Assembly: GCA_022072455.1 (NCBI GenBank)
Contig: JAJVHY010000012.1
Span: 233,236 to 297,235, forward strand
Source of the DNA: Verrucomicrobiia bacterium
GTDB lineage: Bacteria > Verrucomicrobiota > Verrucomicrobiia > Palsa-1439
Reading direction: 5' to 3'
DNA: 64,000 bases
Shown here: one piece after another, positions 37,754 through 44,367 of the stretch
Position numbering within the stretch: position 1 is the first letter of the stretch
Layout: each line of letters begins with the position of its first letter
Translations under genes and position numbers: made by a program
Notes under the pieces: generated by a model
Told to the model about the DNA's origin: nothing
Database searches by the model: none
What the model saw: the letters and a program-made list of their open reading frames with translations, nothing else

Positions 37754-38386
37754 CTACGGAATCGGATTCACGCCGCCGTTACTCACCACCGCCGCCAACC
37801 GGTCCAGCGCCTCCGCCATCGTCTCGGGCGGACTGCCGGCCCAATGACCGGGATTGGCCGGCGAATACGCGCCGGTACTGAACGCTTGCCCATTGCCGGC
37901 TTTCAACGTCCCATCCGCCCACGTCGCCGCCACCGTCAACCCATCGCTGCCGATCAGCGTCCGCAACTGCGGATTGAGAAACCCCTGCCCCGCCCCGTCG
38001 TTGAGTTGCGCCCCCGGATCGTCCACGCCGGGAATGTAACCGCGAAACCCGACGATCGGCTGGCCGGCCGCATTGCAGAGGGCATGCTGGGCGGTGTTGA
38101 GGACCGGCGTGTTGGTCGCCGAATTGTTCACCGAGTTTTTTACTCCGACGTGCCCGGCATTGATGATGTCCTGTTCATCGCACAGCAACGCCCCGGTCAA
38201 GGGACTGGTCAACGCCGCATCAAGCCGCGCCTTGTCGCCGGGCACAAACTGCGCCGCTTCCGACCCGGTAAAGACCGGGTCAGTCTCCGGCACGTCGATC
38301 AAGTCCTTGAGGCCGGTGAATTGGTTGCGGAGTTCCGCCGACGTGAGCGGCGAATTGGGCGCCGGTAAGAGTGGGTCAAAGGGCAT
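37754..38386 (-). CDS. hypothetical protein, phage tail-fibre-like
   Basis: 210 aa, Gly/Asn/Thr-rich. The C-terminal ...NPGHWAGSPPETMAEALDRLAAVV resembles tail-fibre motifs. There are no enzymatic motifs. Confidence 0.55.
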   Translation of the reverse strand: MPFDPLLPAPNSPLTSAELRNQFTGLKDLIDVPETDPVFTGSEAAQFVPGDKARLDAALTSPLTGALLCDEQDIINAGHVGVKNSVNNSATNTPVLNTAQHALCNAAGQPIVGFRGYIPGVDDPGAQLNDGAGQGFLNPQLRTLIGSDGLTVAATWADGTLKAGNGQAFSTGAYSPANPGHWAGSPPETMAEALDRLAAVVSNGGVNPIP

Positions 38387-38480: not shown

Positions 38481-39377
38481 TTAGCCTCCCACAATCACGG
38501 TGGCCTCGGCGCTCCATTGGCCCATGCGTTGGTCGCCGACCCGGTAAATCGCCCGGTACTGCCACTTCGTCGGCGTCGTCGGAATCGGGAACGTGTCCAC
38601 GTAGCCGGGCGTGGTATCAATGGCCAGCAACCGCCAGCCTTGTCCGTCGCCCCGGTCGACTTCGATTTCGCACTGGTCGAGGAACGCCGCCTTCCCGCGC
38701 CACGTCCAGCCGACCGTCACAGCCGCCGGCGCACGGGTGAGCTTGAGCACGGGACCGAACACATTCCAATCGGGCGCACCATCTTCGCTGCCGACCATCC
38801 CGAGGTCGCTGATGATCGCCTCCGTGCAGGTGGGTTTGTTGCGGATGTCCCGGACGAGCGTGAAGACGCGTGTCAACGCCCCGGCCTCGACCGGCGTCGC
38901 GCCCGCGGGACCGGTAAACGTGGGCAACGCCATCGCCCCCGGCAACGTCCCAAACTCCGCGTCCGCGACGGCATCGGTGCAGGACTTGGAGAAGGTGCGC
39001 ACTGCCGGCAACCACGTGCCGATTACGTAGATCAACCAGTCACAATCCGCCTGCGCGGCAGTGACCTGCCCCGCGGCCAACGTCAACGTCGTGGCGTAGA
39101 GCGGGAGTTTGTTGCGGAAATTTCCGAGCCAAAGGACTTGGTCGGCGTTGCCGGAAGGGAAGTAGGAGTTATGCGTCATGCGTTGTTTCCTTTTGGTTGG
39201 GGGTGGAGTGGGAGCGGCCGGCGGGACATAACCCGGGTCGCCCGGTTCGAGCAGATAACTGGGATCGCCCCAGTAGGCGTTTGGGTCGTCGAGATGCGTC
39301 CCGTCGTCCAAATGGATGGTTCTCATAAAGTGCGGCGGCGGTTCCCCCAACTCCGCGGGGAGCCGCGGCGAATCCAC
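38481..39377 (-). CDS. hypothetical protein with a C-terminal fibronectin-III-like domain
   Basis: 298-aa ORF with a GTG start at the edge of the repeat array. An alternative ATG is at 39326. The C-terminal ...TPTKWQYRAIYRVGDQRMGQWSAEATV is FN3-like. Confidence 0.5.
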   Translation of the reverse strand: MDSPRLPAELGEPPPHFMRTIHLDDGTHLDDPNAYWGDPSYLLEPGDPGYVPPAAPTPPPTKRKQRMTHNSYFPSGNADQVLWLGNFRNKLPLYATTLTLAAGQVTAAQADCDWLIYVIGTWLPAVRTFSKSCTDAVADAEFGTLPGAMALPTFTGPAGATPVEAGALTRVFTLVRDIRNKPTCTEAIISDLGMVGSEDGAPDWNVFGPVLKLTRAPAAVTVGWTWRGKAAFLDQCEIEVDRGDGQGWRLLAIDTTPGYVDTFPIPTTPTKWQYRAIYRVGDQRMGQWSAEATVIVGG

Positions 39378-39673
39378 GGGGAGCCCGGTTTAGAGCACGG
39401 GGAGCCCGGTTTGCGATTGGGGGCGCCGGGGTTGCGGCTGGGGGAACCCGGAAAATCGTGCGGGGAGCCCGGTCTGGAGCAAGGGGCGCCGGTTCGGCCG
39501 CTGGGGGAGCCCGGAAAACTGTTGGGGGAGCCGCCGCTGGCGTTAGGGGAGCCCGGAAAATGGTGCGGTGAGCACCCCCAACTCCAGACCCGGCTTCCCC
39601 AGCCGTTAGGTGAGCACCCCGCGCCGTAGCAGCGGCTCCCCCAACGATTAGGGGAGCCGGTTTTGGGGCGTTG
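39357..39673. repeat. tandem array of about sixteen 21-bp direct repeats with a near-palindromic core GGGGAGCCCGG
   Basis: Units are seen at 39357, 39378, 39399, 39420, 39440, 39462, 39483, 39503, 39525, 39546, then double-length units at 39567, 39609 and 39651. There are no spacers, so this is not CRISPR. Confidence 0.8.
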
Positions 39674-39910
39674 ACGGCTGCTTTCAGCGGATTTTGGGCT
39701 GTTTCAGGCACGCGCGCACCCTACCGGAAGGCAAAAATCGCTTCCTCTAAGATTCCCGCATTCGTCTCTAAGATTCCGCGGGCGGGCTCCGGCGCTTCGG
39801 ATGCCACTCCGGGCTTGTCCCGGTCACCCCGCGTTCCTGCGTCGTTCCGGTAAGAGCCACGCCGGACTGAAGTTGACCGGTCCGCCGAACTCTGGAGTGT
39901 AAAAGGCGTG

Positions 39911-40045
39911 TTGCCCAAATCGAAATTTGGGCGTTTTGGTGTAGCGGCGCTTCTGTGAAGCGCCAAGTTTCCTCGAGAATTGAACGACCCGCGCTTCGCA
40001 GAAGCGCGGCTACAACCGGCAAATGCATTTGGGCAAAACGCCCTC
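39911..40045. ncRNA. candidate structured RNA or REP cluster
   Basis: Contains the hairpins GCCCAAAT-CGA-ATTTGGGC, GGCGCTTC-TGT-GAAGCGCC and CGCGCTTC-GCA-GAAGCGCG, and the palindrome CAAATGCATTTG. An enclosing long-range pairing GGGCGTTTTGGTGTAGC...GCTACAA...CAAAACGCCC surrounds them. Confidence 0.3.
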
Positions 40046-40347
40046 AAGCGTTGACCCCGGTGAACTGGCGTTGACCGACCTCAATTCGCACGCAGTGCGA
40101 GCGGTCGTGATGCCGGGTCAGTGAAACTTTCTAGCTGAAGGCCGACAGCAGACCTGTCACGCCAAAGCCTCGGCGAAGGTGGAAAGCCGGTAGCTATTTC
40201 CCGCGCTTCCCCCTCACTGGGGCCGGTCAACAGGGGGGAAACTATCGTGAACTCACTTCGTCGCGAATTTGCAGACTCATGTGTCCCCTGTCTCAGCATA
40301 CGCGAAGCTTGAAGACTTCTTCTCGCTACAGGATACTCCCAACTTCA

Positions 40348-41328
40348 ATGGAGCAATTTGGTGCAGAGATAAGTAACCCAGTTTCGACGGGGGGCGCCGG
40401 AAACAATTTCGAGTGCCACGTCCAAACGCTGTTTGCGGTTTTGATGCTGGCTGGAGGCGTGTGCCCCTGCCTGCCGAACTGGCCGGCCAGCAGAATCCAA
40501 TTGCAAGGCAAACATGACGGTTACCAAACCGATGATGTCATCGTTTTCGCCCGCAACCCTGACAGCGGACAGGAAGCCAAATTACTGGGTCAGATACGGC
40601 TTTCGGTTGCCATCACGAAGAAAAACAAGAAGTTTGGAAAGGTCATCCGCCGTGCGCTGGAGGATTTTCGGAACCCGCAGCTATTCAACGAGAAAACTGA
40701 CGCAATTGCATTGATTACTGGCCCGTTAAGCGCGAGCGATAATGAAAGCGTTCGTTCCCTTCGTGACTTAGCACAGTACGCTCCGACCGCGAAGGATTTC
40801 CTTGGTAAATTCGAATTGGCTAAGTTCATGAGCGAAACGAAACGGCAGAAGTTCCGAGCTATCCGGGCCCAATTGAAGGCCGCGAATGATGGAGAAGATC
40901 TGCCCGAAGATGAGCTGTGGCGTTTCATGAAGAGTTTTCACTTTCTGAGCTACGATTTGGAATTCTCATCGGGAGCCACGCTGTCGCTGATCCAGTCGGT
41001 CCTCGCACAATTTGGGATTCGCGACGTTGCTGGCCTCTGGGGAAAAGTGAATGAAGAAGTTCGTATGTGCAACCAAAATGCCGGAACGCTGCTGTGGGAT
41101 AATGTCTCCGAAGATCTCCGTCAAACCTTCTCGAAGCGCATTGTGTCGACGCCGGCGCGAGACGAACGTACTCCTCCCGCAGAACAGGATTCGCAGAAGC
41201 AAGTGGTCGAACGTGTACAAGGTGTGCAGGCTGACGCAATGGTGATCGCTGCGCTTGCCGGTGGATTTAACGATAAGAAGAAGGCAGATCTCGAAAGCCT
41301 CAACAAGCTGGTGGGTGGCGATGATTAA
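40348..41328 (+). CDS. hypothetical protein (gene A of the low-GC cassette), possible PD-(D/E)xK-like nuclease N-terminal domain
   Basis: 326 aa at GC ~50%. The N-terminal spacing E(FECHVQ)...D(TDDVIVF)...EAK(QEAKLLGQI) fits the nuclease core pattern. Its stop overlaps the gene B start by 8 nt (ATGATTAA). Confidence 0.55.
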   Translation: MEQFGAEISNPVSTGGAGNNFECHVQTLFAVLMLAGGVCPCLPNWPASRIQLQGKHDGYQTDDVIVFARNPDSGQEAKLLGQIRLSVAITKKNKKFGKVIRRALEDFRNPQLFNEKTDAIALITGPLSASDNESVRSLRDLAQYAPTAKDFLGKFELAKFMSETKRQKFRAIRAQLKAANDGEDLPEDELWRFMKSFHFLSYDLEFSSGATLSLIQSVLAQFGIRDVAGLWGKVNEEVRMCNQNAGTLLWDNVSEDLRQTFSKRIVSTPARDERTPPAEQDSQKQVVERVQGVQADAMVIAALAGGFNDKKKADLESLNKLVGGDD

Positions 41329-43903
41329 GAACCGTGAAGAACTGATTTCGGCCTTGCAGGATGTCTCACTGTTACCGAACTCTCCGCTTAAGCAAAAGGA
41401 CGGAAGATGGCGGGTCGCTGAACGCGTTGAGACGTGGAAAGCTATCGGCCCCAAAATATTTGATGAGCATTTAGATCGACTCAAAAAAGTCGCAGTCGAT
41501 GTACTGCGGGAACGTGATCCTCAGTTCGAATTGAAACCCGAGCAGCGGTACGCAGCAAGCATGCACGGGAAGGTGTTGGAGCATTCGCAGACGCTTAGGA
41601 AGGGATTAGCTGAAACATTAGCTCTAATGGGCAGTCTTCCCCAAGTCTTAACGTCCTGCACACACACCAAACCCGAAAACACAGCTGCTCTAGCGGTTCG
41701 AGAGATACTGCAAGATGCAGATTGGGTACTGTGGGCGAGTCTTAATCCCCAGTTGCCGTTGCTTGCAGAAGCCGCACCGGACGAATTTCTTCATCAGGTT
41801 CAAAAGGCCTTAATCAAGCATCCTTCGCCATTTCTGGAAGTGTTTTCGCAAGAAAGAAACGGAATTGCCGGCAGGAACTACCTGACTGGTCTTCTATGGG
41901 CTCTTGAGACGCTCGCTTGGAATCCAAGCCTTCTAACACAAGCTATCGTTATCCTAGGCGATCTGGCTGCAATCGACCCAGGAGGAAATTGGGCAAACCG
42001 TCCGTTCAATTCAATCGTAGACGTACTCTTACCATGGCATCCACAAACCTGTGCCGACATCTCGAAGCGAAAAGCTGCTGTTGTCGCGCTATTGCGCGAT
42101 CATCCCAAGATTGGATGGAAGCTGCTACTCAGCTTATTGCCAAAGGGTCATGAAACCACTTCTGGCACACAGAAGCCTTCATTCAGAAGTTTTATTCCTA
42201 CTGAATGGTCGGAGAAAGTTACAAACCTTGAATACTGGGACCAAGTTAAAGGCTATGCAGAACTGATAGCGAAATTAGTTTTGGAAGATCGATCTAAGCT
42301 GACTGAAGTTGTGGAACATTTTCCCAATTTACCAGAGCCGTCCCGTTCTAAGATCCTTGAGCACTTACGCTCGAAAAAGATTGCCGATTTACCGGAGTCT
42401 GAACGTTTGCCTGTATGGGAAGCCTTGATGGATCTTGCCGCCAAGCATCGAAATTTTGCCGAGTCGGACTGGGCTCTTCCGAAAGAGTATGTCATACAGT
42501 TAGAAGAAATAGCGGCGACATTGTCTCCAGCCGATCGCACGCTGCTATATCGGCGCCTCTTCAGTAGCCGTGATTTCGAATTGTATGAAAAGCTTGGCGA
42601 CTATGCTGAGCAGGAAAGACAACTAGACGAACGTCGCCGTCAAGCAATCGGAGAAATTCTGGAACAAGGCGCTCTAAATGGAATTCTTCGCTTTGTTCGT
42701 CAAGTCCAGTCTCCCGAAAAAGTCGGAAGTGCTCTTGCGTTCGTTGACTTCGACGAAGTCGGTGAGGGGTTGATTCCGAATTATCTTGAAACGAAAGACC
42801 AATCTCTTGGCCCGTTTATGCGGTCTTTTGTTTGGACGCGCTTTTACGTTAAGAAATCACCCTGGCTTGATAGCTTACCTGTGCAGAATTGGTCTCATGA
42901 GCAAAAGCTTCACTTGTTGCTTTTCTTGCCATTCGTCCCTGAAGTTTGGGACAGAGCACGACAGCTTATCGAGGACGTGTCGCTCTACTGGAGAAATGCC
43001 AATGTCCGTCCTTACGGACTTAAAGAACATGCGAAAACAGCTGTTGAGTGTCTTCTCGACAATGGTCGTCCGCTCGCCGCGATATCCTGCCTCTATGTGA
43101 TGATCAACGAGGGAATTCCGTTTTCCGCGAATCTTGCAATAGCTGCGCTGAAGCAAGCTACAAGTACGAAGCCCAAGGAAGATAAATTCGACACCCATCA
43201 GGTGCTTGACGTAATCAAATGGCTGCAGGCTAATCCAGATGTCGAGGAAGTGTTGCTTGCAGCAGTGGAATGGAGCTACCTATCTCTTTTGAGAGAGCAT
43301 TCAGGCGTAACGCCTAAGACGCTAGAGCGCCACCTAACTCGAGATCCAAAGTTTTTCTGTGAAGTAATTGGATACGCTTTTCGTTCCGAAAAAGAACGGA
43401 ATACGGACCGGCAGGCGACGGAAAAGGAGAGAAACATTGCACAAGGTGCTTATCGATTGCTTCATGAATGGAAGAGCATACCAGGAACGAAACCAGACGG
43501 CTCTTTTGATGAAAAGCTATTTGACCAATGGCTCCAAGAGGTAAGGAGAATAACAAGTAAATCGGGACATCTCGGAATCGCGTTGGATCAAATAGGCAAA
43601 GTACTCGCCCACGCACCGCCGAGCCCTGATGGTCTTTGGATACATAGCGCGGTTGCTGAAGTCTTGAACGCAAGAGATGCCGAAGAAATGCGCGCAGGGT
43701 TCTCTTGTGAGCGCGTTAATATGCGTGGTGTCCACTGGGACACCCAAGGCAAGCAGGAACGAGAGATTGCGGACGACTACAATCGAAAGGCAGATGCGCT
43801 AGATGAAAAGGGGTTTGCCCGAATTGCTGCTGCCGTTCGCGGAATTGCCAAGAGTTTTGAGCGGGAAGCGGAACTGGACATTCGCCGCACAATTGAAGAG
43901 TAA
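41321..43903 (+). CDS. hypothetical large alpha-helical protein (gene B of the low-GC cassette)
   Basis: 860 aa at GC ~46-50%, Trp/Leu-rich and helical. It has no Walker A, DExH or other NTPase motif. Confidence 0.55.
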   Translation: MIKNREELISALQDVSLLPNSPLKQKDGRWRVAERVETWKAIGPKIFDEHLDRLKKVAVDVLRERDPQFELKPEQRYAASMHGKVLEHSQTLRKGLAETLALMGSLPQVLTSCTHTKPENTAALAVREILQDADWVLWASLNPQLPLLAEAAPDEFLHQVQKALIKHPSPFLEVFSQERNGIAGRNYLTGLLWALETLAWNPSLLTQAIVILGDLAAIDPGGNWANRPFNSIVDVLLPWHPQTCADISKRKAAVVALLRDHPKIGWKLLLSLLPKGHETTSGTQKPSFRSFIPTEWSEKVTNLEYWDQVKGYAELIAKLVLEDRSKLTEVVEHFPNLPEPSRSKILEHLRSKKIADLPESERLPVWEALMDLAAKHRNFAESDWALPKEYVIQLEEIAATLSPADRTLLYRRLFSSRDFELYEKLGDYAEQERQLDERRRQAIGEILEQGALNGILRFVRQVQSPEKVGSALAFVDFDEVGEGLIPNYLETKDQSLGPFMRSFVWTRFYVKKSPWLDSLPVQNWSHEQKLHLLLFLPFVPEVWDRARQLIEDVSLYWRNANVRPYGLKEHAKTAVECLLDNGRPLAAISCLYVMINEGIPFSANLAIAALKQATSTKPKEDKFDTHQVLDVIKWLQANPDVEEVLLAAVEWSYLSLLREHSGVTPKTLERHLTRDPKFFCEVIGYAFRSEKERNTDRQATEKERNIAQGAYRLLHEWKSIPGTKPDGSFDEKLFDQWLQEVRRITSKSGHLGIALDQIGKVLAHAPPSPDGLWIHSAVAEVLNARDAEEMRAGFSCERVNMRGVHWDTQGKQEREIADDYNRKADALDEKGFARIAAAVRGIAKSFEREAELDIRRTIEE

Positions 43904-44367
43904 ACGAACACGCGTTAATTCGAAAATCCGAACCCAGGTCAACTCCCCACCTCCCACACGATAACTCCTTGATGATCTCCGGGCGAAGCTGTCTGCTGTC
44001 AGCGGTCAGCTATCAGCTGTCGGTGGTCAGCGGTCAGCATTCGGCGGTTGACGGGGTTCGTGGGGCAACAACTCACAACTATTGCATCGAGTTTAAGAAG
44101 CTCGACGTGAATTAAGGCCGGTTGGTTTGGTTCAAGACGCACAGCGAACTCGCCCGCCATGCCTAAGGCCCCCAGAAAACCGACCACCCGGCACTGCGGC
44201 CTGTTCGATTTTGACTGAAAACGGTCAAAAATGTCAGCGGCCGACACAATTGTACTTCTTTCTTGCCGTAATAGCTCGGAATCTTCCGCGGCACATTGAT
44301 TGCTGAAAATGGGCCGCGCGGCTGCAATGGCCGCCTCTGAAAACTCGGTAACTCGAAAGGATTCATT

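Follow-up and report, generated by a model that had tools for sequence, protein, structure and literature searches.

A candidate NTPase-free immune cassette combining a Cap4-type nuclease with a constant HEAT-like solenoid in a Verrucomicrobiia genome

We analysed a 64,000-nucleotide stretch of a Verrucomicrobiia bacterium genome (contig JAJVHY010000012.1 of assembly GCA_022072455.1, positions 233,236 to 297,235; hereafter, the window), and in particular a cassette of two overlapping genes, here named A and B, which a first-pass annotation had put forward as an undescribed two-gene defence or toxin module. With a probability of about 0.6, we read this cassette as a horizontally acquired and self-contained immune module, in which a swappable N-terminal killing domain is combined with a constant HEAT-like solenoid of about 860 residues, free of any nucleoside triphosphatase (NTPase). 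Judging from the sequences and the models derived from them, an anti-phage system is the most likely role of the cassette. Neither the B module nor its alternative partner N2 (described below), nor indeed the whole family, is represented in PADLOC 2.0, Pfam or NCBIfam, and the Protein Data Bank (PDB) offers no specific relative. In addition, no description of the B-module family was found in the literature, the term "undescribed" being bounded by the libraries and the literature searched.

Reading the sequence directly, we found the two open reading frames (ORFs) on the plus strand exactly where the first-pass annotation had placed them, with an overlap of 8 nt:

40348-41328, plus strand: gene A, 326 aa, with a Cap4-type PD-(D/E)xK nuclease domain, a helical subdomain and a C-terminal tail
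41321-43903, plus strand: gene B, 860 aa, an alpha-solenoid of the HEAT/ARM-like type that has a small beta-hairpin at its N-terminus and no NTPase
41321-41328, plus strand: the 8-nt A/B overlap ATGATTAA, in which the ATG of B overlaps the TAA of A

The frame of gene A opens upstream, at the ATG in position 40279; since all the A homologues begin at the residue encoded at the ATG in position 40348, the former is not taken as the start of the gene. The 8-nt overlap suggests that the translation of the two genes is coupled. With regard to base composition, gene A has a GC content of 52.5% and a GC content at third codon positions (GC3) of 0.58, and gene B of 48.7% and 0.46, respectively, compared to 59-68% and 0.69-0.83 for the flanking housekeeping genes. 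The pair is compositionally foreign with respect to the surrounding genes, as had been proposed; the genomic background of about 65% GC proposed along with it proved too high, the GC content of the whole window being 59.9% and that of the flanks about 60-66%.

The product of gene A is organised in a nuclease domain, spanning approximately residues 17-125, a helical subdomain extending to about residue 265, and the C-terminal tail. Its core shows the alpha-beta-beta-beta-alpha-beta order of elements and carries the extra helical subdomain typical of Cap4-type effectors; the fold is of the PD-(D/E)xK type, specifically of the Cap4/LmuA/HamA/Avs3 effector kind. Comparison of gene A with known nucleases scored 13.6 for SeAvs3, 12.2 for AbCap4, 11.0 for LmuA, 9.9 for EcCap4 and 9.1 for HamA. 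This kinship to the Cap4-type nucleases is visible at the fold level alone. No match to gene A was obtained in Pfam (even at E<=1, and including the Cap4_nuclease model), NCBIfam, PADLOC or PHROG, and sequence-profile searches of the PDB with A, B or the N2 domain returned nothing meaningful.

A profile search of 1.84 billion representative proteins gathered an A family of 2152 clusters at E<=1e-3. Alignment A1 of this family shows conservation of E22, Q26, D62-D63, Q82 and K84, so that the family nuclease motif reads E22 ... D62-D63 ... Q82-x-K84, with D62-D63 and Q82 invariant. The catalytic D ... (E/Q)-x-K arrangement is therefore present in the A family, but not in the window copy, in which an arginine takes the place of the lysine:

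40411-40413 (E22) and 40531-40536 (D62-D63), plus strand: acidic partner residues, as defined in alignment A1
40591-40599, plus strand: codons of Q82-I83-R84, the Q-x-K position of the family, with Arg replacing Lys (R84 codon CGG, 40597-40599)

Specifically, Q[IV]K is found in almost all of about 165 A-family members, and the window copy reads QIR. The PD-(D/E)xK nature of gene A had been correctly recognised, as far as the fold is concerned, in the first-pass annotation; the E-x-K that it pointed to, E76-A-K78, is visible in this copy but falls outside the conserved positions. The D/E/K triad on which that assignment leaned exists in the family as D62-D63, Q82 and K84, and is broken in this copy by R84.

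The AlphaFold 2 model of gene B (predicted local distance difference test, pLDDT, 88.3) is a long HEAT-like alpha-solenoid preceded by the small beta-hairpin. The model, together with motif and profile scans, agrees with the earlier description of an all-alpha protein without NTPase, helicase or transmembrane motifs: the sequence scan of gene B detected no Walker A/B motif, no transmembrane segment and no helicase motif. Searches with gene B gave no significant match in Pfam, NCBIfam or PADLOC, where a sub-threshold hit to DUF6630 (E 0.033) was the only signal, no specific relative in the PDB, and no solved defence sensor of matching structure. The protein matches phrog_18693 (E 1e-112), a PHROG of unannotated function which covers the N2-B form, and a tblastn search against the GenBank phage collection gave no match. 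Alignment A3 of the B family highlights conserved W/R/N loops, a possible ligand pocket, and the following block:

41888-42049, plus strand: block of B with the highest conservation (residues 190-243), LWALETLAW ... AIDPGGNWANRP.NS ... LPWHPQT, containing invariant columns of alignment A3

We propose that gene B is the sensor or regulator module of the cassette. Among the candidates scored, the B family exceeds 2883 clusters at 90% identity, and its members occur at no fewer than 582 loci (a lower bound) in contigs representing one genome per species, distributed over many bacterial phyla and archaea (Methanoperedens, Methanosarcinaceae and Methanovorans). Across phyla, archaea included, the homologues keep 44-53% identity, and this spread at such identity points to extensive horizontal transfer.

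An argument for an immune module comes from the way in which the N-terminal domains are exchanged on a constant B. The analysis of locus architecture, like the neighbour counts given below, was based on the 80 best genome loci. In this set 39 loci encode a fused N2-B protein, 25 a fused A-B protein and 9 the split A and B. Consistently, B is present in 93 of the 148 top-ranking A-family representatives, for the most part in chains of about 1175-1185 aa; another 25 consist of A alone and fall short of 360 aa, and 16 have long non-B extensions. A and B are thus usually a single polypeptide of about 1180 aa, and the window pair is a minority split form. Of the proposed undescribed two-gene module, the first adjective stands within the libraries and literature searched, no match being found in PADLOC 2.0, Pfam or NCBIfam, and the second does not extend to most of the family.

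The split form is nonetheless a regular arrangement. At three loci (L001, L002 and L004) a B homologue of about 862 aa is preceded by an A homologue with 44-46% identity, the break point is identical and the overlap measures 8 nt or 4 nt; the expectation that A and B homologues are syntenic in other genomes was therefore borne out, including the overlap. A frameshifted pseudogene was rejected, the same split being observed in at least 12 loci.

N2, the most frequent partner of B, is an N-terminal domain of about 400 aa unrelated to A and without any match in Pfam, the PDB or PADLOC; it may be another effector. The A domain, for its part, is also found on other bodies. In two proteins, P0147 (1709 aa) and P0245 (1585 aa), the PADLOC Avs4 profile matches with E 9e-184 and E 2e-156, respectively, covering profile positions 161-1569, and the A domain occupies the effector place of Avs4. 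In addition, A is carried by NACHT or nSTAND proteins, among them P0252 (2191 aa), an A plus NACHT protein that is not recognised at all by PADLOC. Such a design, a large constant B with swappable N-terminal domains of which one is of a type proven to act as an immune effector, is the hallmark of an immune protein that joins sensor and effector.

Further partners of B were noted. In alignment A4, the N2 domain (P0022 residues 1-400) shows invariant E27, D49, D57, E61, E78 and R96, K88 being nearly so, and an N2-like fragment, P0328, runs on into an HEPN_AbiV domain. At two loci, a B protein that retains only the linker at its N-terminal side is immediately preceded by a HetE-N (PF20701) protein of about 106 aa, the N-terminus of which is hydrophobic:

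L013, 7474-7794 and 7800-10568: HetE-N and B, Buttiauxella plasmid pBTX_57
L099, 5459-5782 and 5797-8592: HetE-N and B, IMG/VR contig

HetE-N and B make up a second type of split pair, again of an effector with B. An HTH_3 N-terminal domain followed by about 400 unannotated residues is present on B proteins of rhizobial plasmids and viral contigs (L012, L101, L103 and L104). RefSeq labels these proteins "helix-turn-helix transcriptional regulator"; the rhizobial copy is the following:

L012, 6507-10577: HTH_3-B protein of Rhizobium tropici pRtrCIAT899b

Finally, in L073 a 216-aa protein (2290-2940) with no Pfam or PADLOC match stands in the position of A, before a B of 861 aa, and is a candidate for a further effector.

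The comparison of the two most frequent partners of B also located the point at which the cassette is divided. When the A family was aligned by hhalign to the N-termini of N2-B proteins, the sole match paired A residues 289-315 with N2 residues 374-400. The segment common to A and N2-type proteins is accordingly limited to the last 35 or so residues of A, which match the linker preceding B; fused A-B proteins, for instance P0139 and P0011, contain it as well. In the window, it corresponds to:

41230-41325, plus strand: two helices (A residues 295-326) with homology to the linker found ahead of B in fused proteins

As A and N2 proteins share nothing but this C-terminal segment of A, the natural split falls inside a conserved linker, and the hypothesis that N2 is a diverged copy of A was rejected. 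From this homology, we infer that the tail of A (295-326) would act as a docking element holding A on B.

The genomic surroundings of the family are consistent with a mobile defence function. Clustering of 765 neighbouring ORFs of the 80 loci revealed no conserved third gene, which indicates that the module is self-contained. The recurrent neighbours were HsdR (10 loci of 80), HsdM (7), SLFN/AlbA_2-HATPase_c_4 (4), RhuM (3), Fic (3) and YhcG (3), and in several loci hsdM and hsdR enclose the gene (for example L043, L046, L048, L065 and L084). Further neighbours include AbiEi/AbiEii, an HNH gene and a transposase, as well as a PDC-S27 ATPase and, elsewhere, ABC-3C components with insertion sequence (IS) elements; the rhizobial L012 adjoins a reverse transcriptase and SLATT pair and a Shedu fragment. 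A defence neighbour was found in 10 of the 35 loci having at least 5 kb on both sides. The B family is represented in 24 plasmid records, some of them conjugative, and in 11 IMG/VR contigs, and in plasmid loci partition and toxin-antitoxin genes lie near the B homologues. These data show that the genes move between phyla, often inside type I restriction-modification or defence loci, in agreement with the expectation of the first-pass annotation that the homologues would repeatedly sit in defence neighbourhoods. Since the counts lack a genome-wide baseline, the neighbourhood evidence is supportive rather than quantitative.

Among the known defence systems, Avs3, Avs4 and Avs7 (SeAvs3 and SeAvs7) join a Cap4-type N-terminal nuclease to a STAND NTPase, which the cassette lacks; their sensors are unrelated in sequence to B and, differently from these proteins, effector and sensor are here encoded by separate genes. 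No STAND P-loop NTPase, whether NACHT or NB-ARC-like, was found in A or B through Walker motifs, Pfam, NCBIfam or PADLOC, and membership in the Avs group was rejected on this ground. Another likeness is offered by Dsr1, DSR2 and Upx, NTPase-free sensors reported to detect structural proteins of phages or terminase (PMC13581612, PMC13601566). These proteins unite an effector and a large repeat sensor in one chain without NTPase, an arrangement that in the cassette is split in two. The effector of Dsr1 and DSR2 is a SIR2 domain, whereas that of the cassette is the N-terminal Cap4-type nuclease; neither the SIR2 NADase nor the family-specific helical sensor of Dsr1/DSR2 was recognised, B giving no PADLOC Dsr match. 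The nuclease of Upx is a PD-(D/E)xK domain at the C-terminus, unlike the N-terminal one of the cassette, and kinship to Upx was rejected for this reason and for lack of homology.

Cap4 of CBASS, LmuA of Lamassu and HamA of Hachiman have the nuclease fold in common with A, but their partners are missing here. Hachiman was rejected, confirming the first-pass view, because B has neither helicase motifs nor matches, no HamB is present and the flanks are housekeeping genes. Lamassu was rejected in the absence of an ATPase motif, of a PADLOC Lamassu match and of any structural match of B to an SMC or partner protein. For CBASS, the part of A following the nuclease is a helical subdomain only, with no SAVED domain or CD-NTase, and no PADLOC CBASS component was detected; it was likewise rejected. 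The effector type is known, and the association of an effector with a repeat sensor in the absence of an NTPase has precedents.

One weak signal may connect B to a described sensor. PD-lambda-4A, that is Avs8A, is a STAND receptor for the HK97 major capsid protein, with an Mrr nuclease and a P-loop NTPase (10.1101/2025.07.02.662641). Two divergent B homologues gave weak PADLOC matches to positions 560-665 of the PD-Lambda-4_A profile (about 105 positions, after the NTPase), namely the L104 protein (residues 638-748, E 8.6e-5) and P0022 (residues 553-667, E 0.041). Both matches map to B residues 145-260, approximately, a portion containing the most conserved block of B, and they hint that the conserved core of B could be related to the Avs8A region downstream of the NTPase.

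Reasoning by analogy from the Cap4-bearing Avs3 and Avs7 on the one hand and the NTPase-free Dsr1, DSR2 and Upx on the other, we envisage the following mechanism. B would hold A inactive, docked through the C-terminal tail of A, and would recognise a cue of infection, for which a conserved phage protein is the most likely candidate. Its recognition might lead to the oligomerisation or to the release of the nuclease domains, which, once assembled or freed, would cut DNA non-specifically, aborting the infection. A broader formulation, which we advance tentatively and consider somewhat short of an even chance, is that B is an NTPase-independent pattern recogniser of bacteria and archaea, maybe an offshoot of Avs8-like capsid sensors, which fires interchangeable effectors (Cap4-type DNase, N2, HetE-N), the split form having effector and sensor as subunits joined by the tail.

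Several observations weigh against an active anti-phage module. No significant similarity links B to a validated sensor, and the window B itself gives no PD-Lambda-4_A match, so that the sole sensor signal consists of the weak matches of the two homologues. A recognisable defence neighbour was found in only 18 of the 80 loci, and in the window the cassette is isolated among housekeeping genes rather than placed in a defence island. The HTH-B fusions could mean a regulatory role. The activation driven by oligomerisation is argued by analogy alone, and no experimental study of any family member was found in the literature. Lastly, gene A carries two substitutions at strongly conserved positions of a 149-sequence alignment: K84R, where Lys is 99% conserved, and W104L, at a position 98% conserved.

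These two substitutions, together with the isolation among housekeeping genes, are also what speaks for the first of the alternative explanations, which stands independently of the two others, namely that the family may well be defensive but that this copy is a decaying or domesticated remnant, whose nuclease is dead and whose gene pair is idle or has retained binding only. As an arginine replaces the catalytic K84, the sequence does indicate that the window copy may be attenuated or inactive. Such a remnant is nevertheless rather unlikely: both ORFs are intact and of full length, with the coupled overlap preserved, and gene A departs from the family at just 3 of 32 conserved columns. This value corresponds to the 75th percentile of the family and is overall not exceptional, even though one of the three columns is the catalytic lysine. 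Moreover, gene B retains 78 of the 78 invariant columns of alignment A3, of which, it has to be said, the window sequence is itself one row.

A second alternative is a restriction enzyme of the type IV style that senses nucleic acids, in which B would bind DNA (modified bases, ends or unusual structures) and position A on it, the defence being direct and not abortive. Several copies occupy the interval between hsdM and hsdR, a frequent site of Mrr- and McrBC-type enzymes; HEAT-like repeats are able to bind DNA, the conserved W/R/N loops of B could form the ligand pocket, and effector A is, by its fold, of the DNase type. However, B is acidic overall (isoelectric point 6.1), with no basic stretch, and no known DNA-reader domain was detected in it. 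Moreover, one of the partners of B, HetE-N, is not a nuclease, a pairing that would be pointless for a reader targeting DNA. We consider this explanation improbable. Even less credible is the idea that the pair serves a mobile element as a toxin-antitoxin or addiction module, with B neutralising a DNase toxin A and so stabilising the carrier DNA. In its favour, the overlapping genes lie on a low-GC insert with inverted repeats on either side, and plasmid homologues adjoin partition and toxin-antitoxin genes; against it, most members are one fused polypeptide, at odds with the labile-antitoxin design, and an antitoxin of 860 aa occurring across phyla on several unrelated N-terminal domains would be atypical.

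If the reading of the cassette as a self-contained immune module is correct, a large immune family, with thousands of clusters and at least 582 species genomes, archaea included, has been missed by current defence annotation, and one more phage-sensing receptor without STAND NTPase is to be added to those described. It would bear on how nuclease effectors are switched without nucleotide-driven oligomerisation, and the split form, which separates the effector from the sensor, is convenient for biochemistry. The alternative partners, N2 and the 216-aa protein, point to more uncharacterised effector domains, and the window copy, with its K84R substitution, may exemplify an immune nuclease that has been attenuated or domesticated.

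As for the boundaries of the cassette, the changes in GC content coincide with the two arms of an inverted repeat of 22 nt, 19 of which are complementary:

40132-40153: left arm, where GC drops
43991-44012: right arm, where GC recovers, embedded in the (AGCTGTC)n tandem

Within the 64 kb the repeat occurs only in these two copies, with none expected by chance, and its score of 14.5 compares with a maximum of 12 in shuffled sequences. Inverted repeats of unrelated sequence were seen at similar positions in L002 (280-296/4015-4031) and in L009/L010 (L009 9881-9896/13930-13945). Overall, three independent loci have inverted repeats on either side of the A-B or N2-B gene, each repeat scoring above all 60 shuffles, and none was present in six other loci examined. 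The bracketing repeats could be remnants of a mobile cassette or could mediate long-range RNA pairing between the 5' and 3' untranslated regions.

Directly after gene B, the spacer contains an imperfect (AGCTGTC)n tandem at 43987-44048, of about 7 copies and with an additional period of 21 nt, which holds the right arm and two of the three GTCAGCGGTC motifs. The three copies of GTCAGCGG(T/C)C reported in the first-pass annotation are indeed present in this spacer (about 0.5 expected), and so is the TTGAC-N8-GTCAA hairpin, at 44211-44228. The absence of a tRNA was also confirmed over the entire 64-kb window, and no integrase was found among the ORFs within about 5 kb of the cassette, the only range checked. 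No Rfam match was obtained at the cassette locus, where promoter and terminator scans were uninformative. An empty-site test with the downstream 240-aa gene found no relatives of it among the genome contigs searched, so that the insertion is not demonstrable by comparison.

The housekeeping genes on the upstream side of the cassette encode an FtsJ/TlyA-type methyltransferase, an NAD kinase and a phosphotransferase system (PTS) EIIA protein, and the one on the downstream side a LeuA-like synthase. Two ORFs on the minus strand, 37754-38386 (210 aa) and 38481-39377 (298 aa), with no Pfam match and a host-typical GC3 of about 0.80, are located between the cassette and the gene for PTS EIIA. An extended hairpin of about 140 nt spans positions 39905-40042, approximately 90 bp to the left of the left arm, with nested inverted repeats at 39905-39920/40027-40042 and 39940-39963/39991-40014; it has a minimum free energy of -76.8 kcal/mol (z-score -6.55), is present in a single copy in the window and has no Rfam match.

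The tandem-repeat array that had been noted upstream of the island lies about 800 bp away, inside other ORFs (38517-39629, plus strand, and 39169-39711, minus strand, which overlap each other), and shows no link to the cassette. Both this array and the TTGAC-N8-GTCAA hairpin were rejected as parts of the system, no supporting link having been found. The array itself, at 39398-39532 (and 39504-39573), consists of 2.1 copies of a 63-bp repeat and contains GGGGAGCCCGG sub-repeats.

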